Shown here: positions 14,181 through 61,802 of the stretch, piece after piece | Numbering within the stretch: position 1 is the stretch's first letter | Layout of the letters: every line of letters begins with the position of its first letter | IMG/VR virus record: IMGVR_UViG_3300027734_000034 | DNA: 64,000 bases | DNA from: a virus | Taxonomy: Duplodnaviria; Heunggongvirae; Uroviricota; Caudoviricetes | Reading direction: 5' to 3' (one strand) | Notes under the pieces: model-generated | Database searches by the model: none | What the model saw: only the letters and a program-made list of their open reading frames with translations | Told to the model about the DNA's origin: nothing | Made by a program: the position numbers and the translations under genes

Positions 14181-14558
14181 TTATTTTCTTTTGTAACCTT
14201 TGAATGGTTTCACAATACTTTGCGTATTGGTATCAGGCAATTCTATACTTTCATCATCTCCATGATTCAAGTCCACAATATCACTACCCACTGCTTTATA
14301 TGCTTGCTTGAGCATTTTTGATTCTATATCAGTATATGGATGTGCTGTATTATAACGACCACTCCATGTTTCTGCATCTATCTCTAATGGAGTAGTTCCA
14401 TCTGCGCTAGCAACTGCCATCATAATACGATTCAATTCATAAGTACGGTCATACCCACCCGGATCACGAAACTTATGTAACCCACGCATGGCAAAGGATT
14501 GTCTTTTGGTAGGTGTACCGATCGTTCGTTGCTCAGTTAAAAACTCACTTGCTCTCAT
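14181..14558 (-). CDS. small protein with N-terminal T4 internal-protein-like capsid targeting sequence (MRASEFLTE)
   Basis: N-terminus MRASEFLTEQR cf. T4 IPI/IPII/IPIII CTS MKTYQEFIAE with L/I-x-E protease site; paralog of adjacent gene; C-terminus FKGYKRK. Confidence 0.45.
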   Translation of the reverse strand: MRASEFLTEQRTIGTPTKRQSFAMRGLHKFRDPGGYDRTYELNRIMMAVASADGTTPLEIDAETWSGRYNTAHPYTDIESKMLKQAYKAVGSDIVDLNHGDDESIELPDTNTQSIVKPFKGYKRK

Positions 14559-14947
14559 TTTGGATAACCTTTAAATGCTTTAACTGGACTGACCTTAACT
14601 ACATCAGTTGCTTCTTCACTTTTGTTAGTACTGATTAGTACTTTCTTACCTGGAACACCTGTTTCTTTCATTGCATAGTCAATATCTTTTTCAATATCAC
14701 CATCCATATATGAACTTACAATCATATTCTCTCCCCATGGAGTTTCTTTTTCAAAATTATAAGCTGGAATACTATCTTGCACTCTTTCTAGTTGCCCACG
14801 AGCACCGGCCAATGCTACACCAAACCGATATTGTTTATAGAAATCACTGTTGGGCAATCCTGGAATAGTATATGTGCCCGACAATGCTCTAGCAACATCA
14901 ACTGATAATGCAGCACGATTTTCCGTTATGAATTCTTTTGCTCTCAT
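14555..14947 (-). CDS. small protein with N-terminal T4 internal-protein-like capsid targeting sequence (MRAKEFITE)
   Basis: N-terminus MRAKEFITENR; C-terminus FKGYPK shared with neighbour; 4-nt overlap with downstream gene. Confidence 0.45.
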   Translation of the reverse strand: MRAKEFITENRAALSVDVARALSGTYTIPGLPNSDFYKQYRFGVALAGARGQLERVQDSIPAYNFEKETPWGENMIVSSYMDGDIEKDIDYAMKETGVPGKKVLISTNKSEEATDVVKVSPVKAFKGYPK

Positions 14948-15505: not shown

Positions 15506-15513
15506 TATTTATC
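15506..15513 (-). promoter_or_regulatory. late-promoter-like box GATAAATA
   Basis: Minus-strand GTGATAAATACACTATAGTTTAGGATTTAGATATG; box 22 nt upstream of ATG at 15483. Confidence 0.35.
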
Positions 15514-16252: not shown

Positions 16253-16260
16253 GCATATAT

Positions 16261-17220
16261 TTATCTATAATAGTCTGAGTTTTTCAACCAGTTGTAGTAG
16301 TTTTGAAAGCCTTCTTCCACATCAGTTTTAGGATTGAATCCAAAGTCTTGTCTAGCTGCATCAATATTCAATGCTCCGCGACTTGGAAAATCAATATCTT
16401 TTGCGCCAACTTCTAAATGACCGCCACCAGCTAATTCTAGTGCCATCTGTGCAGCCTTGAGTAGGGTGACGCTGTGGCTCTTTGTGATGTTGTATGTCTT
16501 GTTCTCTGTATTGTCGCTTAATGCTGCTGCTACAATACCATCAGCCGCATCATCTACATAAGTGAAGTCTAGTTTTTCATGCTCACCATTGACTTTCAGT
16601 ACTTTGCCCCGCATTGCTGTGAGTAAGAATTTGCTGATGACACGATCCTCTACATCGAATGGTCCATAAACAGCACTGGGGCGAATAATAGTATGAACAA
16701 GATTAGTACGGCGAGTATAGTCTTTAACAAGCCATTCACCCGCGAGTTTGAGTATTCCATATTGTCCTTGTGGTTTGCATTCATAATCTTCCTTTACATC
16801 ATCTTTAAAATCACCATATACCATAGACGAACTAATATAGATGAACTTACGAACATCGTAATTGTTACTAGATTCTAATAGATTGAGTAATCCTTCGCTC
16901 ATAGTACGGCTACCTAATGCTGGATTACTATTGACAACTTTCTGTCTAGGAAAGCTAGCCATGTGAATCACGATCTCCGGTTCTTCAATTCTAAAAATGT
17001 TATCTATTTCTTTAGCGTATGTGATATCTGTCACATACTGAAAACTCGTATCACCAATCTTCTTTTGTCGTTCAGCCATGAGATAATCAATCTCACTTTG
17101 AGGGATGATACCATAGTTAGTCTTGTTATCAATTATTGATACTGTATGTCCTTGATCCTGTAATCGTTTTACTACATTGTGACCGATTAGGCCCATACCG
17201 CCTGTTACTAATATGTTCAT
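16261..17220 (-). CDS. NAD-dependent epimerase/dehydratase (SDR family)
   Basis: N-terminal Rossmann motif ILVTGGMGLIGHNVV; catalytic YxxxK (YGILK). Confidence 0.6.
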   Translation of the reverse strand: MNILVTGGMGLIGHNVVKRLQDQGHTVSIIDNKTNYGIIPQSEIDYLMAERQKKIGDTSFQYVTDITYAKEIDNIFRIEEPEIVIHMASFPRQKVVNSNPALGSRTMSEGLLNLLESSNNYDVRKFIYISSSMVYGDFKDDVKEDYECKPQGQYGILKLAGEWLVKDYTRRTNLVHTIIRPSAVYGPFDVEDRVISKFLLTAMRGKVLKVNGEHEKLDFTYVDDAADGIVAAALSDNTENKTYNITKSHSVTLLKAAQMALELAGGGHLEVGAKDIDFPSRGALNIDAARQDFGFNPKTDVEEGFQNYYNWLKNSDYYR

Positions 17221-24757: not shown

Positions 24758-25549
24758 TTACGGGGCTAGCCCTTCCCTAGTTTTTGCACGTTTTACATTC
24801 GCATAAAGTACAACTTGAGTTGGAACCGGTGCTAAATATCTCTTTACCCAAGACCTGTAAACACCATATTTAAAATATATCCCATTGCCTTCAGTTGTTT
24901 TTCCTTTGAAACTATATTTCAAAATTCCATTTGCATAGACTTCAAAAAAGCCATCGTCCAAATTAGACCATTTTGCATGGACTTCAATTTTGTTCCAATT
25001 TCCAAGTAACTCCTTATCAGTTAGTATGGTTACATATTCTTGTGTTGCACATCTATGGTGTCTATCTATAGTTAGCCCACCTCGCAATGCTCCCCATCCT
25101 GCACTATTTTGAAACATGAATGATGAGCAAGTGGGACTGTCAATAGCCCCATCAATATTATAAAATTGTCCTAAGGTGACATTGACGGGCCACACATTGA
25201 TATGGTCTTTGGGTACAAAAATAGACCATCCATACCAGTATTCAGAGTTTGAGTAATTATTTCTATCTGTTGATATCTCAGAACGTTCCCTACTTCCAAC
25301 CCTAGATCCAGTTTGACCTTCAATAGAACAATCTCCCCCTGAACATTCTCCGCTTCTGACTTCAAATCTTTCAACCATTTTCAATGGTGCAGAGCCCGTT
25401 GGATCAGATACTATTTGATATCCGTGCGGTGTTGTACTATTTGATCTAGTGAACTCCTTAAGGTTTCCATGATCAAGTGAATTAGCGGAATTAGTAGCAC
25501 AGCCACCAATCAATAATATTAAAATAATTGATATAAAAAGTTTTTTCAT
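24758..25549 (-). CDS. secreted lipoprotein, PL7 alginate/polysaccharide-lyase-like
   Basis: Lipoprotein signal MKKLFISIILILLIGGC; RSEISTD (cf. PL7 RSELR) and IYFKYGVYRSW (cf. PL7 YFKAGVYNQ). Confidence 0.4.
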   Translation of the reverse strand: MKKLFISIILILLIGGCATNSANSLDHGNLKEFTRSNSTTPHGYQIVSDPTGSAPLKMVERFEVRSGECSGGDCSIEGQTGSRVGSRERSEISTDRNNYSNSEYWYGWSIFVPKDHINVWPVNVTLGQFYNIDGAIDSPTCSSFMFQNSAGWGALRGGLTIDRHHRCATQEYVTILTDKELLGNWNKIEVHAKWSNLDDGFFEVYANGILKYSFKGKTTEGNGIYFKYGVYRSWVKRYLAPVPTQVVLYANVKRAKTREGLAP

Positions 25550-28782: not shown

Positions 28783-29240
28783 CAGATATTTATCAACTTT
28801 TTAGCTTCGTCCTCAGTTTTGTACGGACCCTCATACTCATAACGCTGTATAAAGATGTATTTAGGGCAAAAAACTACTGTAGGTTCTTCACTTTGATACA
28901 TAACATACCATCCTGCCGCATGATAACACTTGCTTTTAGTTGTTTTAGTGAATAAATGTATTTTGCGCTTGATGTCCAACATAGAATTGTAGACCTTCTT
29001 TGTTGTTGGATATTCATTAAAAGGTATTTCTTTTTTAATCTTTTCTGCTTTTGTTTGTTGAAACTCTATGCTAGTTTGTTTTTTAATAGCACTAGTGTTT
29101 TTAAAATGAGTTTTACTGCCGTTGAGTTTTACTTCAAAGCCTGAACCATCAGCAATAACATTTCCTACCTTTGATGTACCATCAGTAACAATCCAGAATT
29201 GATTCTTAACTACGGGTTTTGCGATTAGTGGTTTTGACAT
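28782..29240 (-). CDS. hypothetical protein (152 aa)
   Basis: ORF only. Confidence 0.4.
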   Translation of the reverse strand: MSKPLIAKPVVKNQFWIVTDGTSKVGNVIADGSGFEVKLNGSKTHFKNTSAIKKQTSIEFQQTKAEKIKKEIPFNEYPTTKKVYNSMLDIKRKIHLFTKTTKSKCYHAAGWYVMYQSEEPTVVFCPKYIFIQRYEYEGPYKTEDEAKKLINI

Positions 29241-38035: not shown

Positions 38036-39023
38036 ACATTATATCAAAGTTATCACAGAATGTCAATGCCCAATCGTTCACAGCATCGTTCCAATAGTAG
38101 TCGCTATGTGCCCTAAGTTTCTGTTTGCTATGTCCATTTTCTAGCAAACGCTCCAACTCTGGGCGATCAGTAACGGAAAAGTCTCCGAGTACATCTTCGC
38201 GGCTAACACTGTAATGCATAGTAGGGCGAACACCCCGCCAACTGTCAATAACCCTTTTAACCCTGTCATCAGATGGGTCAATGTATTCTCCTTCACGTAT
38301 CCAATTATGGTGTATGTCCATGACCGTAGGCACGAGGTCAGATAGTGATAAGCAGTCAAGTAGTCCATGTGTATATTCCTCATTCTCTAGTGTAAGTGTG
38401 TTTCGGGCTTCGGGTGACAAACGATTGTACACATCACGAATGCCCTGTGGACCTTTACGACCACTGATGTGTACATTAACTTTGAAGTCTTGAAATGTTT
38501 TGCCATAGCCCATCCAACGAACCATGTCACAATGATATTCAAATTCTTCAATACTCTTATTTACTACTTCTTCACGGTCACTCGCTAAAACTACAAATTG
38601 GTCAGGGTGAAAACTAAGACGGACATCATTAGCCCGTGCAGTCTCGCCGATGGGACTGAACCATCGTGCTAGACTATCTTGCATTGTTTTATCTTGCCAA
38701 AAGTCTTGCCAACCATCCATTGTATAGAAGGGAAGCATGTCCGATGTAAGACGAACCATACGCAATGATGGTTCTAGTGATGACACTTTTTTAACTAGTG
38801 CATGAGTATTGAGAATGTTTTGCTTTGATACCTCAAGTATCTTTTCTTCTGCGGTGCTACGAGATTGTCTATTGATCCATGCACGGGTTGTACCGCCGGT
38901 GGTTAGTTCTCTGACAGAACAGACTTCACCTTTACTGTTTAGTTCACTAAATTTACAAGCAAAGCCTATGCGTTTGATAGATTGATTTGTCAAGATAAAA
39001 GTCCAAAGTGATAAATAATACAT
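37968..39023 (-). CDS. uvdE: UV damage endonuclease (UvdE/UvsE family)
   Basis: SFHPDQFVVLAS, NVHISG, LTLENEEYTHG, DIHHNW align with B. subtilis UvsE motifs SFHPNQFTLFTS, NIHVGG, MTLENDD, DYHHH. Confidence 0.6.
   Translation of the reverse strand: MYYLSLWTFILTNQSIKRIGFACKFSELNSKGEVCSVRELTTGGTTRAWINRQSRSTAEEKILEVSKQNILNTHALVKKVSSLEPSLRMVRLTSDMLPFYTMDGWQDFWQDKTMQDSLARWFSPIGETARANDVRLSFHPDQFVVLASDREEVVNKSIEEFEYHCDMVRWMGYGKTFQDFKVNVHISGRKGPQGIRDVYNRLSPEARNTLTLENEEYTHGLLDCLSLSDLVPTVMDIHHNWIREGEYIDPSDDRVKRVIDSWRGVRPTMHYSVSREDVLGDFSVTDRPELERLLENGHSKQKLRAHSDYYWNDAVNDWALTFCDNFDIMCESKAKNLASFKLFERYKNGTI
39010..39017 (+). promoter_or_regulatory. late-promoter-like box GATAAATA on plus strand 56 nt upstream of plus-strand gene cluster
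   Basis: GTGATAAATAATAC; same motif as minus-strand boxes. Confidence 0.3.
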
Positions 39024-39072
39024 ATAGTGTAACAGAATTACGCAATAAAGTCAACTATTTACGGACAACAAC

Positions 39073-40755
39073 ATGAGATTTACCGAATTTATATCTGAGA
39101 ACGAAAAGCCAGGATTATGGGCAAACATCCATGCCAAACGTGACCGAATCAAACATGGATCCGGTGAGCGTATGCGTAAGCCCGGAAGCAAGGGTGCTCC
39201 AACAGCAGATGCATTGAGAAAGTCAGCAACTGATGAAGCAGCTAATCCAGCACAGCAAGCAGCTATCGCTATCAATATGAAGAAGCATCATCAGAAGCCA
39301 AAAGGTGTGGCGGAAAGCGAGTTGGATAAATTTAAAAAGTATACCAGACCAGTTGTAAAGACTGAACCAAAGATCGAAAGAACAACTAATCCTGCAGGAA
39401 GAACAACTGACCATGTTGAATGGAAAGTTACAAGTCCGACGGGCGAGATTCACAGATATAAATCTAAAAAACAAGCACAAGAGCATTTTGATTCTTTTGG
39501 TCAGCAAGGTGTGGCGGAAGGCGACATGTATGGCGATCAAGAAGTAAGTTGGGAAAAAGGTGGTCGTAGAGCCCCAACTGGTGCATTTAAAAATCCTCAT
39601 ACCAGCGCATTAGGTCGAGCATTATATCGTGACCTCAGCAAGCAACCTAAATTAAGCCCGCAACAAGTCCAACGCAACAAAGAGCGTTGGGCACAGCGTC
39701 AAGCGGAGCGTGAGCAAGGTGTGGCGGAAGGCTCTGAAACACCACAACAGCAACAAGTTCGTGCTGCAATTACTAAAGGCATGGAAAAATGGGATAGTAA
39801 TAATAAGGCTACATATCAGAGTCAACCAACTAAAACTAATTATATGCCACCCAGCGGTTACGCTAGCGATTCATTGACAGGAGTAGATTCCATTGATCCT
39901 GATGGTACCGTGGTCATATCTCTTGGAAATACTGGTGCCGAAGCCACAATTAAAAAATTAGCAACATTAGGTGGTATGCCCGGCATTAAAACTAGACAAC
40001 TGCAATCACCAACCGTTTCATCTAGAGGTGTGGCGGAAGGCAGAAAGCCATTTCGTGATTTAAAATCTTGGGCTGACCACGCAAAATCACAAGGATTGAA
40101 AGTAAGCCCATCTGATCACATTGATTGGACACACGATGCTACTGATAAAGAAGGTAAGGTGCGTGGTAGATTTGTGACTACTAGTGTCCCACAAAATAGT
40201 CGAGGATTCATCCACCAGCAAGGTGTGGCGGAGGGAGAGAGTACTATTCTTTCTCCTGGAACACAAGTTACAGTACCTCACAAGGGAAAAATGGTTTCAG
40301 GTAAAATCGTTAGATATGATTCAGGCAAAGGTATAGAGTCCCCAGCATATATTGTTGATATCAGCGAATACGAATCACTCATCGTTCCAGTTTCTAGAGT
40401 GAAGCAAGACATGGATGAAGGCGAGAATTGGTCAAAGCACAATAACAAACGTGCAGGCGGGATGAGTAAAAAGAGTGTAGCCAGTTATCGCCGCAGTCAT
40501 CCTGGAAGCAAGATTCAAACAGCAGTCACAACTAAGCCTAGTAAATTAAAGAAGGGCAGTAAGGCAGCAAAACGCCGTGCTAGCTTCTGTGCTAGAATGC
40601 GTGGCATGAAGAAACATCGTACTGGTGCGAAAACAGCACACGATCCAAACAGCAACATAAATAAAAGTTTGCGTAGATGGCATTGCGAAAGTATTGAAGA
40701 ACTACACGAATTAGTAATGCTTGCCGAACAATTTATTAGGAACAATAAGAAATGA
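39073..40755 (+). CDS. CTS-bearing protein (N-terminus MRFTEFISE) with five QGVAEG repeats and basic C-terminus. Candidate internal head polyprotein.
   Basis: N-terminus resembles T4 IP capsid targeting sequence; repeats KGVAESE, QQGVAEGD, EQGVAEGS, SRGVAEGR, QQGVAEGE at about 70-100 aa intervals. Confidence 0.5.
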   Translation: MRFTEFISENEKPGLWANIHAKRDRIKHGSGERMRKPGSKGAPTADALRKSATDEAANPAQQAAIAINMKKHHQKPKGVAESELDKFKKYTRPVVKTEPKIERTTNPAGRTTDHVEWKVTSPTGEIHRYKSKKQAQEHFDSFGQQGVAEGDMYGDQEVSWEKGGRRAPTGAFKNPHTSALGRALYRDLSKQPKLSPQQVQRNKERWAQRQAEREQGVAEGSETPQQQQVRAAITKGMEKWDSNNKATYQSQPTKTNYMPPSGYASDSLTGVDSIDPDGTVVISLGNTGAEATIKKLATLGGMPGIKTRQLQSPTVSSRGVAEGRKPFRDLKSWADHAKSQGLKVSPSDHIDWTHDATDKEGKVRGRFVTTSVPQNSRGFIHQQGVAEGESTILSPGTQVTVPHKGKMVSGKIVRYDSGKGIESPAYIVDISEYESLIVPVSRVKQDMDEGENWSKHNNKRAGGMSKKSVASYRRSHPGSKIQTAVTTKPSKLKKGSKAAKRRASFCARMRGMKKHRTGAKTAHDPNSNINKSLRRWHCESIEELHELVMLAEQFIRNNKK

Positions 40756-41330
40756 AAAAACTACTAACGATACTTGCATTGACCTTCTTTGGTTCTGCAT
40801 TTGCCGGAGAGATTACAGTATGTGATGGACAGTATGCATTATGTGCTGCTAGTACTTGCAAACCAACTAACAAAACAATTACTGGTAATAACGGCGTAGC
40901 ATACCCAGAAGTAGAATGCCGTTGCCCAATACTTAAAGGTCGTGCTATCGCTGATACATCAGCAGGTAACATGCAAGGTTCATGTGCTGCAACTGATGAT
41001 AAACATGTTTGGAGTTTGTTTGCTCCTAAACTTTACTACCCACAAGAGGCTAGCAATTTTAGCAACAAACCAAAAGATAAAAAAGTAACTATACAAAAGT
41101 GTGATGCTAGTTTGAATCTAGGTGCAAAGTCTAGCAATTGCTTTAGTTGGAATTGTACGATAGGTAGTGATGGTATTGCACTATGCTCATGCCCAACTGG
41201 TCAAGTACCGGCAAATACTGCATTTTTAACAGAAGCAGGTCAAGGTAACCCAGAAGCATGTTCACAATACCCAGTAAGTTTACCAATCAAAGCGCAAGAT
41301 AAGGCTGAAGCTAAGGAAGCAAAAAAATGA
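40752..41330 (+). CDS. secreted Cys-rich protein (192 aa)
   Basis: Signal peptide MKKLLTILALTFFGSAFA; 14 Cys; start overlaps upstream stop. Confidence 0.45.
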   Translation: MKKLLTILALTFFGSAFAGEITVCDGQYALCAASTCKPTNKTITGNNGVAYPEVECRCPILKGRAIADTSAGNMQGSCAATDDKHVWSLFAPKLYYPQEASNFSNKPKDKKVTIQKCDASLNLGAKSSNCFSWNCTIGSDGIALCSCPTGQVPANTAFLTEAGQGNPEACSQYPVSLPIKAQDKAEAKEAKK

Positions 41331-43072
41331 ACTTTAAAGAATTACACGAAGGCGCAGAGCCAAATATGCCTGGTGCCCCTAGTGGCATCAAGATTATGAC
41401 ACCTCAGCAGTTCGTTGCTAGTGCAGGTGATTCAAAATCTGATGAAGAGGTATCAGAAGGCGGTAATGCATTCATGCCAGGCATACAAAATACGGCAGAA
41501 TACAAAGCAGGTTTTGCAACAGGCAAGTTACCAGTTCCATATCCTGAAGGTACACAACAATATGCTAGCTATTACAAAGGAGTGATTGATAAGTCTACCC
41601 CTAATTTAAATAAAGGTACAGCAGGAAATTCGTTGACTGAATTTGCCCCTAGTGATGACGGTGATGATGGATTTAGTGAAGAAACACTAAAAGGTCTTGC
41701 AGCGCAATGGTGGAATGGTGATGAAGATCCTCGTGTAGAAAAATTATTGATGGCTGCAGGTTGGGAGATTGGTCAAGATGATGGGTATGACAACGGTGGT
41801 GTGTTTGTGGTGCGAGCCGGTGATGACAGTGGTCATAGTTATCTCAGTTGGCCAGCAGAAGAACTAAATCCTAATTTATCAGAAACACATTTAAATAGAA
41901 TTCGTAGCTTATCTGGATTAGTTGAAGCAACTAAACTACCAGCACAAACTCGTGATTTGGATAGTCAAGAATTTCAAGACTATATGAAGCGTATCGTTGG
42001 TACACCTGATTTAGACAAAGAAGGTAATGTTAAAGTAGATAAAAAAGGTAACGAAAAGTATACTACTGGCAAGACCAAAGGTGACAAATACAAGATGCCT
42101 TACATCCATCGTAGTAGTGTAGTTACATACTTAAGCCCAGATGGTAAAACATATGATGAAGATGCAGTTAAACAAACATTAGCAATTCGTCCTAAATCAT
42201 TATTAAAGCAAAATGAAAAGATGAAACATAGCAATGGTGAGTTTGAACAATTCTTCAATGTTGGATTTGCAGCATTAGTAGGAATTGCATTAGATGAACA
42301 AACTAATAAATTAATCATTGTTAATACTTGTCCAGGCGCTGGCTCTTGTAAAGTAGAGTGCTTTGCTATGAAAGGCGGCAAGATTCAATTCAAGGCTGCA
42401 TGGCAAAGTGACGGAAGAATACTAACATATCTATTAAATGATCCTGATGGTTTCTTCAATCAACTAAGTAGTGAAATATCTGCTGAGGCACAAGCAGCAG
42501 CAAAGGGTGATAAGAAATTCCCTAATGGTTGGCAAACAACAGTTCGCTGGCATGATGCTGGTGACTTCTTTAGTCCAGAATATTTAGACATGGCATTGAA
42601 GATGGCTGCTAAACATCCTGATGTTAAGTTCTATGCTTATACTAAAATGGCTGGAGCAGCATTAGCGGATAAGCCAGACAACTTCATTATCAATTGGAGT
42701 GAAGGTGCTAACACTGCACAAGAGAAACAAATCAAAGCACAAGATCCTAAGTTAGATAAAACAAAGAACAGTCGCATCGTTCCAGAGAAACTATTCTATG
42801 ACTTATTGGCTAAGGACGAGAAGGGCAATTTAGCAAAGACTCCAGATGGTGCATGGCAACCTGCAGGGCCGCAAGAATTACAACAAATGAAACAGCGTAT
42901 TGCAACAGAATACGGTATTAGTGCTAACTCTATTTTGAGTTATACTGAGTACATGGCTAAGAGAAATTCAATCCCAGCTGGAATGAAGTACAATGTTATT
43001 GTTGCACCAGGTGAAGGTGATGTTAGTGCTAACGACCCAGGCGTACTAAGTACCTTATTGCTAAGACATTAA
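41327..43072 (+). CDS. large hypothetical protein (581 aa) with CTS-like N-terminus MNFKELHE
   Basis: ORF with overlapping start; weak similarity of N-terminus to MRxxEFxxE leaders. Confidence 0.45.
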   Translation: MNFKELHEGAEPNMPGAPSGIKIMTPQQFVASAGDSKSDEEVSEGGNAFMPGIQNTAEYKAGFATGKLPVPYPEGTQQYASYYKGVIDKSTPNLNKGTAGNSLTEFAPSDDGDDGFSEETLKGLAAQWWNGDEDPRVEKLLMAAGWEIGQDDGYDNGGVFVVRAGDDSGHSYLSWPAEELNPNLSETHLNRIRSLSGLVEATKLPAQTRDLDSQEFQDYMKRIVGTPDLDKEGNVKVDKKGNEKYTTGKTKGDKYKMPYIHRSSVVTYLSPDGKTYDEDAVKQTLAIRPKSLLKQNEKMKHSNGEFEQFFNVGFAALVGIALDEQTNKLIIVNTCPGAGSCKVECFAMKGGKIQFKAAWQSDGRILTYLLNDPDGFFNQLSSEISAEAQAAAKGDKKFPNGWQTTVRWHDAGDFFSPEYLDMALKMAAKHPDVKFYAYTKMAGAALADKPDNFIINWSEGANTAQEKQIKAQDPKLDKTKNSRIVPEKLFYDLLAKDEKGNLAKTPDGAWQPAGPQELQQMKQRIATEYGISANSILSYTEYMAKRNSIPAGMKYNVIVAPGEGDVSANDPGVLSTLLLRH

Positions 43073-45769: not shown

Positions 45770-46612
45770 TTAAGTGCCCCATTCGTTTTTGAATAACGGC
45801 ACTTGTAGTCTATCACTGTACCGCCATCCTTTTCGCATTGCCATTTCTGCAACCGCCCTATTATTAAGATTGTACACCCGCTCAACGCCACCACAAGGCA
45901 TAAGATAGACATGACCACGAAAACCCCTCTTACGATACGCATTTACTGCCTCCTCAGCTTCTTCCATATCCTCGTTAGTAGCTACTACAAATTTGAGATA
46001 TGTATGCCCAACTTGGCTATATTCATAGATTATGTCTGGGCAGATAGCATCATCCCACTTCTCACCACTGATGCTGAGTTTAGGACTGACGCTGAATGTG
46101 ATAGAACCCATGCTACGACTTGTACACCATTTATTCAAGAAGAATCGTAGATCCTGATGTAATGATTGTGTACCATTAGTCTCAAAAGTTAGTTCTTGTA
46201 AGCTACGCATCTTCTCGTTTGAAAGTAAATCAACAAAACTACGCTGCCAACCTAGTAGTGGCTCACCACCAGTGATGACAAGATGCTCATCTAACCAACG
46301 CTTCTCTGGCAACATATCCATGATACTACTAACAATACTATCAGTTTCAAGCATTGGACTTAAGTCTTTGAATCTGGGATCCCAACTCGCATAGCTATCA
46401 CATCCTGTACTGACAAGTGGTAACATTTTGTAATCAGTATACTTTGTCGGGTCGATATTATTTGCTTCCTCGCTTAGTTTACCTTTCGGCATACCAAAGC
46501 CTGCACATTTGAAGTTACATCCGAATGTTCGTAGAAATACTGAGGGGACACCCATGTATCTACCTTCACCTTGAATGCTATAGAATAGTTCTGCTATTTT
46601 TAATTTTGCCAT
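45770..46612 (-). CDS. queE: 7-carboxy-7-deazaguanine synthase (QueE-like radical SAM)
   Basis: N-terminus AELFYSIQGEGRYMGVPSVFLRTFGCNFKC matches QueE E.FxSxQGEG...G.P.xFxRxxGC; Cys cluster spacing atypical (CxxxC...C). Confidence 0.6.
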   Translation of the reverse strand: MAKLKIAELFYSIQGEGRYMGVPSVFLRTFGCNFKCAGFGMPKGKLSEEANNIDPTKYTDYKMLPLVSTGCDSYASWDPRFKDLSPMLETDSIVSSIMDMLPEKRWLDEHLVITGGEPLLGWQRSFVDLLSNEKMRSLQELTFETNGTQSLHQDLRFFLNKWCTSRSMGSITFSVSPKLSISGEKWDDAICPDIIYEYSQVGHTYLKFVVATNEDMEEAEEAVNAYRKRGFRGHVYLMPCGGVERVYNLNNRAVAEMAMRKGWRYSDRLQVPLFKNEWGT

Positions 46613-46615
46613 GTT

Positions 46616-47713
46616 TTATTGCCTGAATGAATTTATGTCACCTAAATATACTTTTTTGTTTTTAAAAATATCATCTTTTAATATTTCTTTTAGTAAAATT
46701 TTATCTTCTGCGTTTAAATTTAATCTATCGTACATAATGTTATCTAAATGTCCCCACTGCCGTATACTATTAAAATATATACCTGTCAAGTTTTCATATG
46801 ATAATTGCCAATTAATATAGTCTTTAATTTCTTTATAATTACCTTTTTGGACAGTAAAAGAAGTACTCCAGCCAATAAAATTTTTAAAACTGTTACTTAT
46901 AATCATTTCATTAAGAAATTTTAAATTTTCATCTAATTTATCTTTAGATCCATTTATTCTTATCTTTGAATAAGTTTCATTTGAAAATGCATCGATACTT
47001 ACTGTAATATGTGTGATATTATTCCATAATGGTTTTATTTGATTCCAGCGTGATTCTGTCATTAAAATACCGTTGGTCATTAGTTTTATTGTTAAATTTT
47101 CATTTAGATTTTTTGTTGACAATGTTTTTAAGTAATTCCAATAAGTAGGACTTGCAAAAGCATCTCCACTACCAGTAATGTTTATACTAACCTTTTCACC
47201 TTGTTCTAATAAATAATCAACAAGTTTTTCAACTTTGTCATTGATATTATCTATTTGTTTATTTTCTCCCAATTTATGAAGTATTAAATTATTACGACAA
47301 CTAGGACATTGCAAATTACATGATAAATCATAACAAAAATGAATTATGATTGAATTAGAATTTTTATAAAAATCTAATAATTGCAAAGGTACAATTGTAT
47401 TACCAGGCATTACTTTATCATTTAACATTTGACTAATAAAAGGACAATAGTCATTGCAGTTTGTGAATTTACCCTCACTCATATCTGATATCATAGCTAG
47501 TCGTTCTGAATTATTAATGATATCTTCTATTGAATCTGTAATAATATTGCCGCAAAATTTTGGTAACCAAGAAAAACAACATATAGTAATATCACCATTG
47601 TGGTGAATTTCTAAATGTTTTGATATTTTATAACAGCCGAAATTTTTTAAATATTCCTGTGTTCTTGCATACTCATTTTCTGATTTCATTAAAAAATTCA
47701 TGTTATGATTCAA
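46616..47713 (-). CDS. radical SAM domain protein of unknown function
   Basis: CNLQCPSC (CxxxCxxC) motif about 130 aa from N-terminus; additional Cys pairs near N-terminus; 365 aa. Confidence 0.55.
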   Translation of the reverse strand: MNHNMNFLMKSENEYARTQEYLKNFGCYKISKHLEIHHNGDITICCFSWLPKFCGNIITDSIEDIINNSERLAMISDMSEGKFTNCNDYCPFISQMLNDKVMPGNTIVPLQLLDFYKNSNSIIIHFCYDLSCNLQCPSCRNNLILHKLGENKQIDNINDKVEKLVDYLLEQGEKVSINITGSGDAFASPTYWNYLKTLSTKNLNENLTIKLMTNGILMTESRWNQIKPLWNNITHITVSIDAFSNETYSKIRINGSKDKLDENLKFLNEMIISNSFKNFIGWSTSFTVQKGNYKEIKDYINWQLSYENLTGIYFNSIRQWGHLDNIMYDRLNLNAEDKILLKEILKDDIFKNKKVYLGDINSFRQ

Positions 47714-48192
47714 TCTTTAAATTCATTATCTTCTCTGTGTCCTTGACGACCTGCCATGTTTGAATCAGTCTCACGTACTTCTACTTTACAGCACCAAACA
47801 CGTTTGGCTTCTTCACTGCCGCAGTTGGGTAAGAAGATAGTGTTCACATATTCATATAAGAAATCACTGATACCTTCACATCCTGTCTTTTCAACCTCTG
47901 TAATTTTTGCTAGTTTAAGTTTACCTAGATTCAATAGATGTTCACGCATCGGGTCATCTTGTGCGACTAGTAATGTATGATCGAACCATTCTTCTAATTT
48001 TTCTTTGAGTGGTTTCAAGCCACCAAAGTCAGTCACCCAGTTTCGTGCATCTAATGTATCCGCTTCAAATTCAAAATGAAACGACATTGCGTAACCATGA
48101 ATCATGTTACAATGACTATCTGCACGCCATTGACGATAAGCTACTGGACCTATCTGTTTGTACGTTTTTGTACTGAAATATTTTTTTGCCAT
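47710..48192 (-). CDS. queD: QueD/PTPS-family protein (6-carboxytetrahydropterin synthase-like), divergent metal site
   Basis: SHCNMIHGYAMSFHFEFE vs QueD HKCGRLHGHSFMVRLEI; WFDHTLLV vs LDHHYLN; third His replaced by Tyr. Confidence 0.5.
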   Translation of the reverse strand: MAKKYFSTKTYKQIGPVAYRQWRADSHCNMIHGYAMSFHFEFEADTLDARNWVTDFGGLKPLKEKLEEWFDHTLLVAQDDPMREHLLNLGKLKLAKITEVEKTGCEGISDFLYEYVNTIFLPNCGSEEAKRVWCCKVEVRETDSNMAGRQGHREDNEFKD

Positions 48193-48266
48193 GTTGTTCT
48201 CCTATGTTAATTATAGCATAGGCAGCAGAATTTGTAAAGCGGGATGATGACCGAAGACCGCTATCT

Positions 48267-48728
48267 TTATTTATCCTTTGATTCAGCTTGTACTACACGC
48301 TTACGCAAACTACTGCTACTGAAACTATGGTCACGGCTATTGAATACTAATTCAATCTTACGCTTCTCGCAGATTGCTCTACCAGTAAAGTCTTTCTCCA
48401 TGTACTCAACCCCTAGTATACGCACATCTACTGGCAATGTCAACAGTATGTCTTCCAAATCTTTTTCTGTATTGTAAACAACAATTTCATCTACAAAACG
48501 GACAGCACTTAAACTGATTTGGCGTTCAACAATACTTTGAATGGGAGCATTCTTATCTGGTCTATCCCATTGTGCATTATTTTGTAACCCAGCAATGAGG
48601 TAATCGCAATGATTCTTAGCTTCACTAAGCATTGCGATATGTCCTGCATGTAATATATCAAATTGCGAGAACACGATACCTATCTTTAGGCCTTGTAATT
48701 TTAGTTCTTTGATACGGTTGAATATCAT
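48267..48728 (-). CDS. cytidylyltransferase-family nucleotidyltransferase (TagD/RfaE-II-like, HxGH motif)
   Basis: IGIVFSQFDILHAGHIAMLSEAKNHCDYLIAG aligns with TagD [30 protein letters not shown]. Confidence 0.6.
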   Translation of the reverse strand: MIFNRIKELKLQGLKIGIVFSQFDILHAGHIAMLSEAKNHCDYLIAGLQNNAQWDRPDKNAPIQSIVERQISLSAVRFVDEIVVYNTEKDLEDILLTLPVDVRILGVEYMEKDFTGRAICEKRKIELVFNSRDHSFSSSSLRKRVVQAESKDK

Positions 48729-48997
48729 TCTTCAACTCCAAAAAAGTGTTCTTTAATTGCTACATAACTGTCAACACCACATTGAACATAACCATCCCAA
48801 TGTGTGTCCTTCATCATAAGTTCATCTTCCAGCACAGGCAGATATTGTTCTCTTACTTGATTCATACATTCAGCTATAATCAATTCAGCAAGATTTTCTA
48901 AGTTTTGTTTGTCATCATCATGCCCGTATAAGCTAGACCGTTTTAATGCCCAATCAAATCCAGCCTGTTCAGCAAGTTGTTGAATTCGTTCGTTCAT
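48725..48997 (-). CDS. MNERI/HFGVE small-protein family member
   Basis: MNERIQQLAEQAG, NLENLAELIIAEC, C-terminus KEHFFGVEE. Confidence 0.5.
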   Translation of the reverse strand: MNERIQQLAEQAGFDWALKRSSLYGHDDDKQNLENLAELIIAECMNQVREQYLPVLEDELMMKDTHWDGYVQCGVDSYVAIKEHFFGVEE

Positions 48998-49677
48998 TTC
49001 CCACCCCGAGCCAATTGATAGAATTCTGCTCTTGCTGCTGGATCACTTTTGAATCCACCACCTAATTTACTTGTAACAGTACTAGAGCCAGTATCTTCTA
49101 CACCTCTTGATTTAACACAATAATGTTGTGCATCAATCATGACCGCAACATCTTCTGTCTCAAGGATATATTGCAATGCGTGAAAGATTTGTTCTGTCAA
49201 TCGTTCTTGTATTTGTGGACGCTTGCTAAAGTATTCTACGATACGATTGATTTTACTCAATCCAAGTACTTTCTGATTGGGAACGTATGCCACAGTTGCT
49301 AGTCCATCGATGACTACAAAGTGATGTTCGCAATTGCTTTGTACATTGATATTGCGTTCGCATACCATTTCGTTGTACTTCATCTTGTTATCAACTGCTG
49401 TACATTTAGGAAATGCCTCATAATCTAATCCCCAAAAGATTTCATTGACATACATCTTTGCTACACGTTTTGGGGTGTCAATCAGACTATCATCTGTTAA
49501 GTCAAGACCTAATGCTGTCATAATATCAGCAAATAATACTTCAATGACTTCAATCTTGCCTTTACGGTCGATGATTTGACCTGTCTCTTTGATAGGAGTT
49601 TCAACTCCCATCTTAACCAAATGTTCGTGTACTTTTTGACCCAACTCTGGATCTGTTTTTGTTTTATTATAACTCAT
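48994..49677 (-). CDS. folE: GTP cyclohydrolase I
   Basis: CEHH motif (NCEHHFVV), C-terminal QHYCVKSRGVEDTGSSTVTS region typical of FolE; strong RBS AAGGAAGG. Confidence 0.8.
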   Translation of the reverse strand: MSYNKTKTDPELGQKVHEHLVKMGVETPIKETGQIIDRKGKIEVIEVLFADIMTALGLDLTDDSLIDTPKRVAKMYVNEIFWGLDYEAFPKCTAVDNKMKYNEMVCERNINVQSNCEHHFVVIDGLATVAYVPNQKVLGLSKINRIVEYFSKRPQIQERLTEQIFHALQYILETEDVAVMIDAQHYCVKSRGVEDTGSSTVTSKLGGGFKSDPAARAEFYQLARGGK

Positions 49678-49756: not shown

Positions 49757-49945
49757 TTAAGCCTTAGCTTCTTTTCTTGCTGCTTTTTCAGCGGTGATTT
49801 CATTACGGCGAGCCTTGACTGCTTTAGCTAGTTCACCCAATGCTTTACGGGCACGAGTTCCTGCTGCTGCATTACCTTTTTCAAATTTTTCATGTTCGGC
49901 TTCGTATGCTGCCAATTGTGTTTTAATATCATTATGTGCGTTCAT
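49757..49945 (-). CDS. small Ala/Lys-rich helical protein (62 aa)
   Basis: ORF only. Confidence 0.35.
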   Translation of the reverse strand: MNAHNDIKTQLAAYEAEHEKFEKGNAAAGTRARKALGELAKAVKARRNEITAEKAARKEAKA

Positions 49946-57881: not shown

Positions 57882-58192
57882 TACAGTGTTTTACCCACAG
57901 TTTCCAAGATAGTATTTAATTCCTCGTGGTCGGCATTTGTTTGACCAAGACTTGCTTTGTGTGCGACAGATATTGCCTTCTTAAGAATGCTAGGCTTTAC
58001 TTCTAGTTCTTCTGCAATAGCCTTGACAGTATCACTTAGACCCTCGCGTAGGGTATCGATCTCGTGTAATACTACCATGCCCTCGTTGATAAGTTGAGTC
58101 AACTTAATCTTTTGCTCTCCGGTAAACATTTTATCACTCATAGTTTCTCCTTGTAAAGTAATTAGTATACATGCCTTGTGTAGAAAAGTCAA
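57881..58192 (-). CDS. hypothetical protein (103 aa), stop overlaps polymerase ATG (TAATG)
   Basis: ORF; translational coupling. Confidence 0.4.
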   Translation of the reverse strand: MTFLHKACILITLQGETMSDKMFTGEQKIKLTQLINEGMVVLHEIDTLREGLSDTVKAIAEELEVKPSILKKAISVAHKASLGQTNADHEELNTILETVGKTL

Positions 58193-58797
58193 ACATTTTG
58201 CTGTTTTTCTACAATCTTTTTAACCACAGTATTCAGTCCTGGGTTAATATGTAATGCGTGTGGCATTAAATGTGTTCTTACATAGTTACGCATATACTTC
58301 GTGTCATCATTGCTATTATCGTGACACCAATCAATTGATTTCTGTTCGCACCATTTTGTGAATTCGATTTTGTTTGTAGTTAGAAATGGGCGAACAACAT
58401 TGTTTCTTTTTGCTGGGATAACTTTGGCTTGTCCATGCATTGCTGACCAAAGATATGTTTCTACGCAATCATCTAAGTGATGACCAGTTATCACTGGACC
58501 CAATGAATTGCCAATACTATCCAAAAAATCATAGCGTTCATTACGCCAATGTTCTTCCATGCTAAGTTCTTTGGGTTTACTCTTTTTAATCATCCCAATC
58601 ATCAATGGAAGTTTTCGTTCTGTGCAGAAATTAGCAACAAATTGTAAGGCTCGTTCGCTATTCTCTGTTCCATGATGGAAGAAAGCGCAACCTACCTTAT
58701 GCTTGTGTGAAAGGAAATCAGTGATGGCAACAGAGTCAACACCGCCACTAAGTGCGACAACAACTTCTTTTGGTAATGGAAAGAGTAGTTTTAGCAT
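58189..58797 (-). CDS. PP-loop ATP pyrophosphatase, TilS N-terminal-domain-like (not a canonical QueC)
   Basis: PP-loop VVALSGGVDSVAI; TilS-type motifs VITGHHLDDCVETYL (AHHxDDQxET) and RNYVRTHLMP (RNRIRHELLP); lacks QueC Zn-ribbon Cys cluster and TilS C-terminal domains. Confidence 0.5.
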   Translation of the reverse strand: MLKLLFPLPKEVVVALSGGVDSVAITDFLSHKHKVGCAFFHHGTENSERALQFVANFCTERKLPLMIGMIKKSKPKELSMEEHWRNERYDFLDSIGNSLGPVITGHHLDDCVETYLWSAMHGQAKVIPAKRNNVVRPFLTTNKIEFTKWCEQKSIDWCHDNSNDDTKYMRNYVRTHLMPHALHINPGLNTVVKKIVEKQQNV

Positions 58798-58823: not shown

Positions 58824-59408
58824 TTATTGAAAGATTTCTGGGTGACTTTTGCCAAATATTTTCATGGCTTTGCCCGCAGTCATATCTGCTAGCATTTCAA
58901 TTGGGCTACCAGGATAACTATCGCCCGGTTCGATCATATTCAATTCACCTTGACGTACATGGGTTAGTTCGTGATAAACGGTACGCATAATGTCAACCAT
59001 GTTACGATTAGCAACATATACCCAAACACTGTTATCGTTTTCTGAATGACGACCGGTGTGATGTCCTTGTTGTGCTTCTTCGGTATTGTAACTGAATTCA
59101 AATTTAGGTGTAGATTGTAGATGTAATTCTTTACTAGCCCACTGGATGAATTTTTGCATTATTGGATTGTCTTCCAAGAAGTTTGGTTCATCGCTTGCTT
59201 CATCTAATTTACCCTTGACCCATTCATCTGGTGATCTTTTGAATTTGTGAACGAACAAATCATGTAATGCTTTACCAGTGATACGATGTTTACTTGCAAT
59301 ATTTTGCATCAACTTGTCAATAGTATTATAGTCATATTTTTGCAATGACGGTAGTCTTTTTGATAATTCAATTGCAGCGGATTCAACAATGATGTGTTTT
59401 GTGAGCAT
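58824..59408 (-). CDS. hypothetical protein with C-terminal HExxH motif. The track start at 59432 is GTG; ATG is at 59408.
   Basis: VYHELTHVRQG; GATAAATAC box ends 3 nt upstream of ATG. Confidence 0.4.
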   Translation of the reverse strand: MLTKHIIVESAAIELSKRLPSLQKYDYNTIDKLMQNIASKHRITGKALHDLFVHKFKRSPDEWVKGKLDEASDEPNFLEDNPIMQKFIQWASKELHLQSTPKFEFSYNTEEAQQGHHTGRHSENDNSVWVYVANRNMVDIMRTVYHELTHVRQGELNMIEPGDSYPGSPIEMLADMTAGKAMKIFGKSHPEIFQ

Positions 59409-59411
59409 TAT

Positions 59412-59420
59412 GTATTTATC
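59412..59420 (-). promoter_or_regulatory. GATAAATAC motif 3 nt upstream of ATG at 59408
   Basis: Minus strand GATAAATACATAATG. Confidence 0.3.
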
Positions 59421-60188: not shown

Positions 60189-60817
60189 ATTACAGTTACC
60201 CTTACATCTGATTCCCCATAATTTTGTTGATATTCAACTGGGGGTTGTTCTATATTTAACATATCACAGAGCATGGTATTATTTAATGGGGTTTTGCCTG
60301 GGTAGTTTAAGGTGCCGTTGACAATACCGATGTTCTGTGCTTCAATAATTTTAGACATTGCACGTAGATTTTTATAATGTTGATAGTTTGGATATGTAAT
60401 ATCAAAATGTCCGCATTTTACCCACCACCCTAAACAAGCGTCATCGGGTCTGTGTACCAATATCAGTGGACATTCTGGCCAGGTCTTTTTTATAAACTCA
60501 ATATGTTGAGTATAGCTGAACCAATGACTTTTGATTATACGAATGCCTTCACCATTAAATGGGCGGTCAAATTCTAATTCGTGTCCTTGTTTGCTGCGTG
60601 TGCCAAGACCATCTCCATCTAAAAACCAATCGCCGAATTCCATGCCCGGATCAAAGTATGCACCCATATGCATGAGTTCTGTGCGACCAGTCGCATCATG
60701 AAAATAGGTGCGCTCAATACTGTGGTCACTGCGATCAATACTGGGACTGTGATAGATGTTCTTCGCTACACTGCTCCATTTACTGCCTGGGGCGCCGGCT
60801 ACAAATATATATTTCAT
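60185..60817 (-). CDS. hypothetical protein (210 aa)
   Basis: ORF only. Confidence 0.4.
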   Translation of the reverse strand: MKYIFVAGAPGSKWSSVAKNIYHSPSIDRSDHSIERTYFHDATGRTELMHMGAYFDPGMEFGDWFLDGDGLGTRSKQGHELEFDRPFNGEGIRIIKSHWFSYTQHIEFIKKTWPECPLILVHRPDDACLGWWVKCGHFDITYPNYQHYKNLRAMSKIIEAQNIGIVNGTLNYPGKTPLNNTMLCDMLNIEQPPVEYQQNYGESDVRVTVI

Positions 60818-61770
60818 TCAGGTTTAAATCGTTGTGCTATTGGTTGCCATTCTTTGCGTAACTTAATCATGCTAGCATTTAGTCCTTGTGCTGTGTGTTC
60901 ATTCGTACTTATGAACATCATGTTCTCCTCAAACTTTTCTTTAGCTTCTTTGCTATTGATAGCAGGGATGAAATTTGTACGATACCAGTCTTGTATATCT
61001 TTTGATGTACCTTTGGGTAGTATAAGATTCCAGCAGCCATATAGATTTAACCCCGGCGCGTAGTCTTTCATTAATGGCACTTTTTCTAATCCATGAATAG
61101 GTACTTCACTTGCTAGACCAATTAACTTTAACTTACCTGCTTGTACATAAGGATAACCAACTGCAACTGGTGTCACACTAAACTCAACATGCCCGCCCAT
61201 AACATCTAATAATGCTTGCGCTGGCCCTTTGTACATAATAGTTTCAACCTTATCACCTGCTACATTCAACTTACTAGTTAGATATTCTACTGCTAGTTTA
61301 TGTCCGCCTCCACCAATAGCAAAATTGATAGGTCTTTGTTTAGATTTAATTTCATTTATCAATTCTTCTGGGGTGTTTACTTTACTACTAGGGTGTGCCC
61401 AGAATGCTAATGGGCTTTTAGCAATATTAGCGATTGGTTCAAATTCAAAAATGTTATATTTAAGCATTTGCGGATACCATATTTCAGCAGTCACCCATTG
61501 ACTATTACATGCTGGCATAGAGATGGTATATCCATCATTAGCTACAGTGTTGAAATAATTTGTAGCAAGATTGCCATCTGCGCCTGGTTTATATTCAGAT
61601 ATAAATTTTGTACCAGTGTTCTTTTCTACAATGTCTGCTACGATTTTAAAACTTATCTCATTGCCAGCACCCGGACCGTTTGGATATATAACAGTAATTG
61701 GTTTAGTTGGTTGCCAAGCTATAGCAGACAATGACACAAGTAAAGTTAGAATAAAGATTATTGATTTCAT
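60814..61770 (-). CDS. TctC/Bug-family periplasmic solute-binding protein. Likely start is MKSIIF at 61770; the track ORF extends to 61800.
   Basis: Signal peptide MKSIIFILTLLVSLSAIA; KPITVIYPNGPGAGNE and YKGPAQALLDVMGGHVEFSV...AGKLKLIGLAS match TctC family conserved blocks. Confidence 0.55.
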   Translation of the reverse strand: MKSIIFILTLLVSLSAIAWQPTKPITVIYPNGPGAGNEISFKIVADIVEKNTGTKFISEYKPGADGNLATNYFNTVANDGYTISMPACNSQWVTAEIWYPQMLKYNIFEFEPIANIAKSPLAFWAHPSSKVNTPEELINEIKSKQRPINFAIGGGGHKLAVEYLTSKLNVAGDKVETIMYKGPAQALLDVMGGHVEFSVTPVAVGYPYVQAGKLKLIGLASEVPIHGLEKVPLMKDYAPGLNLYGCWNLILPKGTSKDIQDWYRTNFIPAINSKEAKEKFEENMMFISTNEHTAQGLNASMIKLRKEWQPIAQRFKPE

Positions 61771-61802
61771 AAGAGTGATTAAATATATATTTAACAGCAT
61801 TT

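Follow-up and report, generated by a model that had tools for sequence, protein, structure and literature searches.

Linker-bounded cassettes and a T4-like N-terminal tag in proteins of a freshwater jumbo phage

Which proteins does an uncultured phage load into its head, and can they be recognised from the starts of their genes? The question arises from a window of 64,000 nucleotides, the whole stretch of DNA analysed here, which belongs to the IMG/VR record IMGVR_UViG_3300027734_000034 (Caudoviricetes). The window genes found by PHROG scans lie almost all on the minus strand, and positions 39,073 to 43,072 form a plus-strand island. The original prediction took this island to encode internal proteins with a leader like that of the T4 internal proteins (IPI, IPII and IPIII). 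We find that such a leader, or tag, is carried by at least five proteins of the window, and that the dominant feature of the island, missed by that earlier reading, is an architecture of cassettes joined by nucleotide-conserved QGVAEG linkers. Related loci suggest a tentative mechanism in which tagged polyproteins would be packaged, cut at their linkers and injected with the DNA.

The N-terminal tag

Three open reading frames (ORFs) of the window begin with the pattern MR..EF[IL].E: MRFTEFISE in a protein of 560 amino acids (aa) that heads the island, and MRASEFLTE and MRAKEFITE in minus-strand proteins of 125 and 130 aa. The original prediction had reported these leaders, and the coordinates and N-termini of all five ORFs concerned are confirmed (Table 1). 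In all six frames of the 64 kb the motif EF[ILV]xE occurs at four sites, three of which are residues 5–9 of these three proteins; chance does not come near to accounting for this sharing. Synonymous codons differ among the three leaders, which argues for selection on the peptide and not on the DNA. Variants are seen in the 581-aa protein of the island (MNFKELHE|G, the bar marking the predicted boundary) and in a 194-aa protein (MLTKHIIVE|S), so that at least five window proteins carry a tag of 8–9 residues, M-[RKN]-x-x-[E/K/H]-[FLI]-[ILH]-x-E.

The capsid targeting sequence (CTS) of T4 is a propeptide of about 10 residues in which positions 4 and 7 are hydrophobic or aromatic and positions 8–10 read (I/L)-x-E, and in IPIII the specificity of the prohead protease gp21 lies in residues 8 and 10 (PMC9026906). 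In T4 Alt, gp21 cleaves at ITE-6 and LTE-619 (PMC5694885). The likeness to this sequence that had been claimed for the leader holds up well: MKSFKEFIEE in relatives of the window proteins compares closely with MKTYQEFIAE of the T4 internal proteins, and with a one-residue gap F3 of MRFTEFISE falls on T4 position 4, F6 on position 7 and I7-S8-E9 on positions 8–10, which is the pattern of a CTS at the level of sequence. The claimed match of the leader's end to the L/I-x-E protease site is likewise borne out, as window tags end in I-T-E, I-S-E or L-T-E and both ITE and LTE are documented gp21 sites in Alt. The 125-aa and 130-aa tags have Ala at the place of the aromatic residue of T4 position 4.

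In its strict form the tag marks 58 distinct ORFs, each 100 aa or longer, in roughly 1.1 Mb of related viral loci. It is carried by 15 of the 85 ORFs that contain the linker described below, against 43 of 914 other ORFs (p=4e-5), and a looser form by 38/85 and 81/914 respectively (p=7e-16). The tag is a real, portable N-terminal leader, present on dozens of unrelated proteins in related T4-superfamily contigs.

Does the leader behave as one unit? The 125-aa and 130-aa proteins are paralogs in a family of 2961 proteins, the best 120 of which all start MRA.EF..E. Their synteny is also kept, in the order baseplate-like ORF, 131 aa, 124 aa, methyltransferase, (fibres), terminase. When 1.8 billion representative sequences were searched with the 130-aa protein, 142 relatives were found, 26 of which have the domain at an internal or C-terminal place. 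About 24 of these have lost the MRA.EF part and show [LIV]-x-E-[SGAN] at the place of the tag's I-T-E, even where the HMMER alignment stopped short of that position; the larger proteins themselves start with tag-like sequences. Since the boundary motif is kept at internal domain boundaries that lack MRA.EF, the tag would seem to have two parts, one specific to the N-terminus and one marking a boundary, the latter fitting the specificity of T4 gp21. A tblastn search of phage records with the 130-aa protein gave no match.

The module that follows the tag in the 560-aa protein (GLWANIHAKR..GSGE.MRKPGSKGAP, hereafter GLWANIHA; PHROG 16028 matches aa 11–52) has 794 metagenomic relatives, which take three forms: stand-alone proteins of 55–62 aa that start MAKKPGLW, tagged proteins (MRFTEFISE, MKANEFITE, MKSFKEFIEE, MISFKEYLEE) and proteins in which it is the C-terminal module after ..QGVAEESKGLW. 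An aliphatic-x-Glu ends 2–3 residues before GLWANIHA in 53 of 83 fused or tagged proteins. All 85 isolate phages with the module are podoviruses of 35–55 kb without the tag, and the alignments start past the tag position; in P-SCSP1, for example, genes for the module and for a small DUF6321 protein stand between those for capsid and tail tube. In marine Kyanoviridae-like T4 phages there is a conserved run made up of DUF6267 (with a KWDG ligase-type motif), a tagged GLWANIHA+DUF6321 protein and a cytidylyltransferase, with the tag-like N-termini MLKLKEFITE, MITFKEYLQE and MKTFNEYLTE.

Linkers and exchangeable cassettes

Beyond its tag, how is the 560-aa protein built? Five copies of GVAE[GS] split it into mutually unrelated modules of 60–100 aa, mostly basic (pI 9.5–11.7). 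At least eight modules can be counted in it, and its relatives reach seven linkers and 1560 aa. Pfam DUF6321 (PF19846) is found at aa 460–536 with 38.3 bits against a gathering cutoff of 28.5. The linkers are conserved as DNA: GGTGTGGCGGAA-type sequence is present in five copies in this gene where 0.12 would be expected, and it is written with rare codons, GTG making up 13% of the Val codons of the window and GCG 6% of its Ala codons. Searches of the island proteins against PADLOC, NCBIfam and PDB sequences gave no informative match, and in the literature on the linker peptide, DUF6321 and GP88 nothing relevant was found.

The same DNA recurs widely. The exact 16-mer AAGGTGTGGCGGAAGG is found in at least 120 IMG/VR contigs, a lower bound, at 168 sites, of which 164 lie in an open frame with 164 different flanking peptides. 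ORFs with the 16-mer hold up to seven sites, and the spacing between them is always a multiple of three. Among 293 GVAE sites in the long ORFs of those loci, 231 are written as the canonical 12-mer GGTGTGGCGGAA, and most of the remainder are a single synonymous substitution from it, while control tetrapeptides in the same loci occur 5–49 times each. The extended consensus is [K/E]-Q-G-V-A-E-G, with QGVAEG encoded by the 18-nt element CAAGGTGTGGCGGAAGGC, and the peptide follows the rule of an aliphatic-x-Glu and then a small residue. The median cassette between linkers is 71 aa long, and cassettes are mostly basic. In one locus (L107) the linker stands directly after a 9-aa tag.

The 581-aa protein, the second of these cassette carriers in the island, shows what varies and what does not. 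It consists of a conserved N-region of 40 aa, a variable cassette region and a conserved C-terminal part of about 395 aa, within which Pfam GP88 (PF17338) is found at aa 293–466 (91.7 bits against a cutoff of 24.4). There are 2428 homologs. In the best 120, which are 442–885 aa in total length, the N-region MNFKEL.EGAEP.MPGAP.GI.IMTPQQFVA.AGD..EE and the C-terminal part flank between zero and four cassettes. Orthologs are 58–97% identical over the aligned parts, most of them 82–97% over the C-terminal part, and near-identical orthologs differ in the cassettes between their linkers. The bounds of these cassettes are GVAEG or GVTEG, GVSEG, GMAES and GVAEA, and the window protein itself has the degenerate boundaries EVSEG and, as the last, NLSE|TH. 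Some cassettes are common to homologs of the 581-aa protein and the 560-aa gene: the module KYTRPVVKT..HRYKSKKQAQEH in P0431, MYGD.EVSWEKGG in P0388 and P0395, and GLWANIHA in P0393. We regard the exchange of cassettes within and between carrier genes as established by these sequence comparisons. The carriers are also neighbours beyond this phage, the DUF6321-carrier followed by the GP88-carrier between divergent UvdE and epimerase genes in six loci (L039, L049, L083, L099, L118 and L131).

The boundary before the GP88 domain separates the peptide rule from the DNA. Here P1 is Glu in about 97% of cases and P3 is V, I, L or M in about 93%, and the rule extends to non-canonical boundaries without the DNA motif (AILEG, GLTES, LDIDEN). 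That the rule is kept where the DNA motif is lost argues that the peptide is selected independently of the DNA. The tag of the 581-aa protein, MNFKELHE|G, follows the same aliphatic-x-Glu rule.

Between the two carriers lies a 192-aa ORF that overlaps each of them by 4 nt (ATGA junctions). It has no family match and was found only in this phage (L003), and not in the six loci with abutting carriers; because those related loci lack it, we read it as a recent, lineage-specific insert in the carrier operon, outside the tag and linker system. It had been described as a secreted protein with 14 Cys, and the count is 12. The view of the island as a set of three internal proteins is not upheld: this ORF is a lineage-specific insert with an export signal, and the 581-aa protein is a conserved, enzyme-like one with a GP88 domain and a variable cassette array.

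Proposed packaging and cleavage weighed against other explanations

Would a phage of this kind possess a protease able to read the tag? PHROG scans of the window found a gp32-type single-stranded DNA-binding protein, a T4-type large terminase, long tail fibres, a gp43-type DNA polymerase, a gp46/47-type nuclease, thymidylate synthase and 7-deazaguanine synthesis genes. Sequence identity of 47–50% links the polymerase and terminase to those of Sinorhizobium phage Phosso, Agrobacterium phage Atu_ph07, Pseudomonas phage PA5oct and the Rak2/GAP32/CBB group, and polymerase, terminase (TerL) and protease searches converge on the same jumbo phages. Contigs that carry the 560-aa gene include one from freshwater (JGI) and one of 0.2–1 Mb. 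Together these relatives and occurrences identify the source of the window as a freshwater jumbo myovirus, uncultured and belonging to the Phosso/PA5oct/Atu_ph07/Rak2-like clade within the T4 superfamily. A megablast search of 50,697 phage records with the island gave no match.

All of the nearest relatives (Phosso, PA5oct, Atu_ph07 and the Rak2-likes) encode a gp21-type prohead protease, as do the clade-mate contigs L030 and L052. A T4-core-like gene is present in 70 of 120 motif loci, and three of them (L030, L052 and L075) carry portal, a gp67-like acidic protein, gp21 protease, gp22 and gp23, with a linker polyprotein two genes after the capsid gene. Orthologous linkers of this polyprotein read QGVAEG, QGITEA, QGVTEA and GMAEAG. 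The closest relatives of the protease of these head loci are those of Phosso (63%), PA5oct, Atu_ph07 and the Rak2-likes, which is the clade of the window. Alignment to T4 gp23 suggests YLKE|NASAG as the maturation site of the capsid protein in the head loci and FLVE|NASAG in PA5oct. Phosso has tag-like ORFs after the portal (MRYNEFSKE..) and after the protease (MRASELFEF..), and in PA5oct a 73-aa post-portal protein of the head module, MKINDIITE|G, is annotated as 'structural protein, ESI-MS/MS'; the PA5oct paper reports 93 virion proteins by ESI-MS/MS (PMC7318152). By this annotation a tagged relative is detected in virions. Between the major capsid gene and the linker polyprotein, L030, L052 and L075 have an ORF of 240–248 aa that looked by eye like a GIY-YIG-type homing endonuclease.

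In the mechanism that we put forward, the N-terminal part of the tag would bind the prohead core, as the 10-residue CTS of the T4 internal proteins does, and its terminal aliphatic-x-Glu would be the site at which a gp21-type prohead protease removes it; in T4, exchange of the Glu for Asp stops processing and leaves targeting intact. The carriers, two in the window (560-aa DUF6321-type and 581-aa GP88-type) and a third, peptidase-type, in relatives, would be cut at each linker during head maturation. One tag would in this way suffice to bring many small basic proteins into the head, from which they would be injected along with the DNA, and the linker DNA CAAGGTGTGGCGGAAGGC would offer short in-frame homology for cassette exchange within and between carrier genes and phages. 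A gp21-type protease is the most likely cutter because the motif fits its documented specificity; the alternative cutter would be the tagged gluzincin-like peptidase discussed below. Capsid targeting, cleavage, injection and the mechanism of recombination are what we infer from the sequences, and the scheme as a whole is offered tentatively, as an account that comes close to being probable without quite reaching it. More doubtful is its widest form, an in-frame integron-like system in which the 18-nt element would be recombination joint and protease site at once and a single T4-like tag would load the whole string, spread through a widespread clade of freshwater jumbo phages. Such a system for injected proteins would be of a type not described before.

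Several observations weigh against packaging and cleavage. The linkers have Val at P3, where documented T4 gp21 sites have I or L, and their nucleotide identity, needless for protein function, could reflect a role purely at the level of DNA or RNA. The GP88 carrier is enzyme-like, and structure prediction lends no support, since AlphaFold2 models of its C-terminal 396 aa and of the 130-aa protein are both of low confidence (pLDDT 51.8 and 50.6); a Foldseek search of the PDB gave no match at E<=0.001. The 64-kb window itself holds no head module, so that the protease is supplied by relatives. For PA5oct, the virion support consists of the record's annotation and the protein total of the paper, and in the 65 kb scanned only the post-portal protein is tagged, with no tag seen among some 125 small early genes in the first 50 kb. 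Lastly, tag-like N-termini occur in Melnitz-like T4 phages on probable cytoplasmic enzymes, a DUF6267 KxDG ligase-like protein and a cytidylyltransferase, a finding that speaks against the capsid reading unless those enzymes are themselves packaged. In the T4-like genome of Melnitz the strict tag pattern matched no annotated gene, and looser forms were seen by eye.

Could the linkers be shuffling joints and nothing else? QGVAEG would then be a flexible inter-domain linker whose DNA identity comes from frequent recombination or gene conversion, and the proteins would remain intact in the cytoplasm, where their modules might serve the GP88, DUF6321 or peptidase domains as variable adaptor arms; the tag would be an N-terminal helix that does something else, for instance binding a shared partner, stabilising the protein or making its translation efficient. 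The conservation of the linker as nucleotides with rare codons would be expected from this, as would the variation of cassettes among orthologs near-identical in their C-terminal part, the enzyme-like domains at the ends of carriers and the tag-like N-termini of the ligase-like and cytidylyltransferase proteins. It would not be expected that boundaries without the DNA motif still have Glu at P1 and an aliphatic P3 (AILEG, GLTES, LDIDEN and GITEA), and the same rule at the starts of the 130-aa and GLWANIHA modules is left unexplained, as are the linker directly behind the tag in L107 and the stand-alone podovirus modules with neither tag nor linker. The leaders, moreover, vary synonymously and so are not DNA joints. 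We consider this explanation unlikely, if a serious one.

An explanation that we find improbable is that the phage employs a peptidase of its own, the prohead protease being uninvolved at the linkers. The 194-aa tagged protein contains R..DI.RT..HE[LM][TV]H.[RK]Q followed by GSP.E..A[DN], an HExxH...ExxxD arrangement that is invariant in 14 divergent homologs and that by motif looks like the signature of a gluzincin-type peptidase. The same domain ends a carrier with three linkers and a DUF6321 cassette in L016 and L058, and could cut linkers either ahead of packaging or in the injected protein. In the polyvalent proteins the hub domain is an embedded zincin peptidase, by which, on the published proposal, these proteins are divided into units following injection (PMC5512222). 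However, aliphatic-x-Glu is the documented specificity of gp21-type serine proteases, thermolysin-type enzymes usually select the P1' residue, and the peptidase domain is missing from most carriers, the two of the window among them; the 194-aa ORF matches no known family in Pfam, PHROG or PDB.

Least of all do we credit a signal in the RNA, in which the 18-mer, with its Shine-Dalgarno-like AAGGTG and GGAAGG, might for instance bind ribosomes internally, make them pause or be cut by an RNase, each module then being made on its own: the nucleotide-level conservation and one window linker with an ATG 6 nt later (GVAEGD-M) would suit it, but Met is not enriched after linkers (4.6% over P2'–P4'), for which reason internal translation initiation there was rejected, all sites lie in one continuous frame, and variants keep the peptide rule and not the RNA sequence.

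Surroundings of the locus and related systems

The island had also been credited with a late-type box upstream. The box, GATAAATA, is present 55 nt before the ATG of the 560-aa gene, overlapping the first codons of the divergent UvdE gene, and it is kept at −62/−63 before the orthologous gene in five loci (L037, L039, L049, L083 and L108). The window contains 10 copies where 4.7 would be expected, a number reached in 2 of 100 shuffles, and all 10 are co-oriented with the local genes. The label 'late' is not established, since the box also precedes the gp32, queD and folE genes and so is not to be called simply late; the canonical T4 late promoter TATAAATA is rarer here than expected (3 copies against 7.3). 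Four copies end 4–6 nt before an ATG, in the contexts GATAAATAcaattATG, ..tatgcATG, ..tctgATG and ..cataATG, and if these boxes are −10-like the mRNAs would be leaderless or nearly so. A hairpin between box and start codon of the 560-aa gene shows paired changes when read by eye (GTGTAG..CTACGC in L039 and L083, GTGTAA..TTACAC in L037), which suggests a conserved RNA structure.

Table 1. Positions of the features in the window and in related records
Feature	Record	Position	Strand	Remarks
125-aa paralog, MRASEFLTE	window	14181..14558	-	ORF confirmed
130-aa tagged protein, MRAKEFITE	window	14555..14947	-	conserved lineage gene downstream of baseplate-like ORF
GATAAATA box	window	15506..15513	-	23 nt upstream of 179-aa baseplate-like ORF heading run 179/130/125 aa
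GATAAATA boxes ending 4-6 nt before ATG	window	5232-5239, 16258-16265, 28787-28794, 59413-59420	-
GATAAATA promoter-like box	window	39010..39017	+	upstream of 560-aa gene
5'UTR hairpin GTGTAA-CAGAA-TTACGC	window	39027..39043	+	6 bp; between box and 560-aa start codon
560-aa carrier	window	39073..40755	+	tag, GLWANIHA module, AQQAAIAI module, four further modules, DUF6321; ORF confirmed
Tag MRFTEFISE of 560-aa carrier	window	39073..39099	+	ends I-S-E; T4 CTS-like
Linker 1, GGTGTGGCGGAA	window	39304..39315	+	GVAE
Linker 2, GGTGTGGCGGAA	window	39508..39519	+	QGVAEG
Linker 3, GGTGTGGCGGAA	window	39718..39729	+	QGVAEG
Linker 4, GGTGTGGCGGAA	window	40027..40038	+	GVAEG
Linker 5, GGTGTGGCGGAG	window	40222..40233	+	QGVAEG; one synonymous change (G)
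192-aa ORF	window	40752..41330	+	signal-peptide-like N-terminus MKKLLTILALTFFGSAFA; 12 Cys; insert between carriers
581-aa GP88-type carrier	window	41327..43072	+	tag MNFKELHE|G; Pfam GP88 C-terminal
194-aa tagged protein MLTKHIIVE|S	window	58824..59408	-	HExxH...ExxxD; GATAAATA box 4 nt before ATG
263-aa ORF	window	24758-25549	-	polysaccharide lyase family
7-deazaguanine gene set	window	45770-49677 and 58189-58797	-
62-aa very basic ORF	window	~49757-49945	-	L003 14451-14639
328-aa ORF	window	60814-61800	-	TctC/Bug family
240-248-aa ORF	L052	7870-8592		also in L075 and L030
Kyanoviridae-like run	L008	8787-11106
Kyanoviridae-like run	L010	6265-7928
Kyanoviridae-like run	Melnitz MZ577098	12203-16866

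Other genes of the window bear on the phage and its host. The 7-deazaguanine set comprises queE-like, radical SAM/SPASM, queD/PTPS, CTP-transferase-like, folE and queC-like genes, which adjoin epimerase and glycosyltransferase genes, and no recognisable DpdA transglycosylase is present in the window. Published work reports one in every such phage. The adjacent GP88 protein is a candidate for a DpdA-like 7-deazaguanine transglycosylase; searches gave no TGT signal at E<=0.5 and no tblastn match to DpdA3-bearing phages. A very basic ORF of 62 aa, annotated as Pfam Hc1 (chlamydial histone-like) in L003, may be another DNA-condensing protein, and a 263-aa ORF that matches the polysaccharide lyase family (Pfam E=1.7e-22) might be a virion enzyme that degrades capsule or EPS. 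A 328-aa ORF belongs to the TctC/Bug periplasmic solute-binding family (Pfam E=1.7e-26), host-like genes typical of Betaproteobacteria, and may be a hint to the host. A scan of 596 Gb of bacterial genomes for the linker 17-mer gave single matches only, in unrelated and mostly GC-rich taxa; with about 70 chance matches expected, the 17-mer is uninformative on this point.

How does the system compare with those already known? It is closest to the internal proteins and Alt of T4, in which a short N-terminal tag ending (I/L)-x-E is common to otherwise unrelated proteins of one phage (MKTYQEFIAE against MRFTEFISE in the window and MKSFKEFIEE in relatives). The phage is likewise of the T4 superfamily, from a clade that encodes gp21 homologs, and in both cases the cargo, here a predicted one, is small and basic and its genes hypervariable. 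It differs in that the mature parts share no sequence homology, the tag has 8–9 residues and not 10, with Ala for aromatic residue 4 in the 125- and 130-aa proteins, and the cargo of this clade is often a polyprotein with internal linkers that have Val at P3 and are conserved as DNA. Searches of Pfam, PHROG, NCBIfam, PADLOC and PDB matched no window protein to IPI, IPII, IPIII or Alt. To our knowledge, internal proteins are not conserved even among T-even phages, so that this lack of homology weighs little. The tag is a new example of the CTS idea known from T4, found in a distant jumbo clade.

The polyvalent proteins of phages and conjugative elements (Iyer, Burroughs, Anand, de Souza and Aravind, 2017; PMC5512222) resemble the carriers in having many disparate modules per polypeptide, within the 2–15 domains by which that class is defined, in the rapid turnover of their architectures and in their predicted delivery with the DNA and separation by a zincin-like peptidase, a domain that by its motif looks gluzincin-like being present in some carriers here. 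Unlike them, the carriers have modules that are mostly tiny (about 50–120 aa), basic and unannotated, and a uniform nucleotide-conserved linker with a common N-terminal tag is not a feature of the described class. The known conflict effector domains by which the class is marked (ARTs, kinases, anti-restriction, ParB-like DNases and others) were not detected in the window proteins by family or profile searches. The jumbo phages phiKZ, 201phi2-1 and SPN3US also load many proteins into the head, where head and inner-body proteins are multiply processed, and their protease cuts after Glu at several sites per substrate; however, its motif is S/A/G-x-E with another preference at P3, those phages have neither a shared 9-residue tag nor cassette linkers, and the window clade does not belong to the chimalliviruses.

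With integron cassettes the likeness is one of function only: exchangeable units are bounded by a recurrent short sequence behind one expression signal. The exchange here differs in taking place in frame inside coding sequence, at a junction that is no attC-like palindrome and with no integrase evident. By inspection the linker is not palindromic when set against its reverse complement, an inverted-repeat search of the island found no arm at a linker, and no integrase was seen adjoining the cassette arrays. Exchange would presumably proceed by homologous or microhomology-based recombination. As far as could be determined, a nucleotide-conserved in-frame linker with cassette exchange is undescribed, and even without cleavage it is a clear, unreported form of recombination-driven domain shuffling, conserved as nucleotides in 164 sequence contexts.

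Together, tag and linker are a possible portable system for packaging chosen proteins into T4-type capsids. If the proposed mechanism is true, a linker identical in DNA that keeps the reading frame would be a new evolutionary device, letting modules trade like cassettes, and would explain the fast diversification of internal-protein repertoires. Sequence would then be sufficient to reveal the injected cargo of abundant uncultured freshwater giant phages, hundreds of small proteins that would form a catalogue of candidate early-acting or counter-defence factors.

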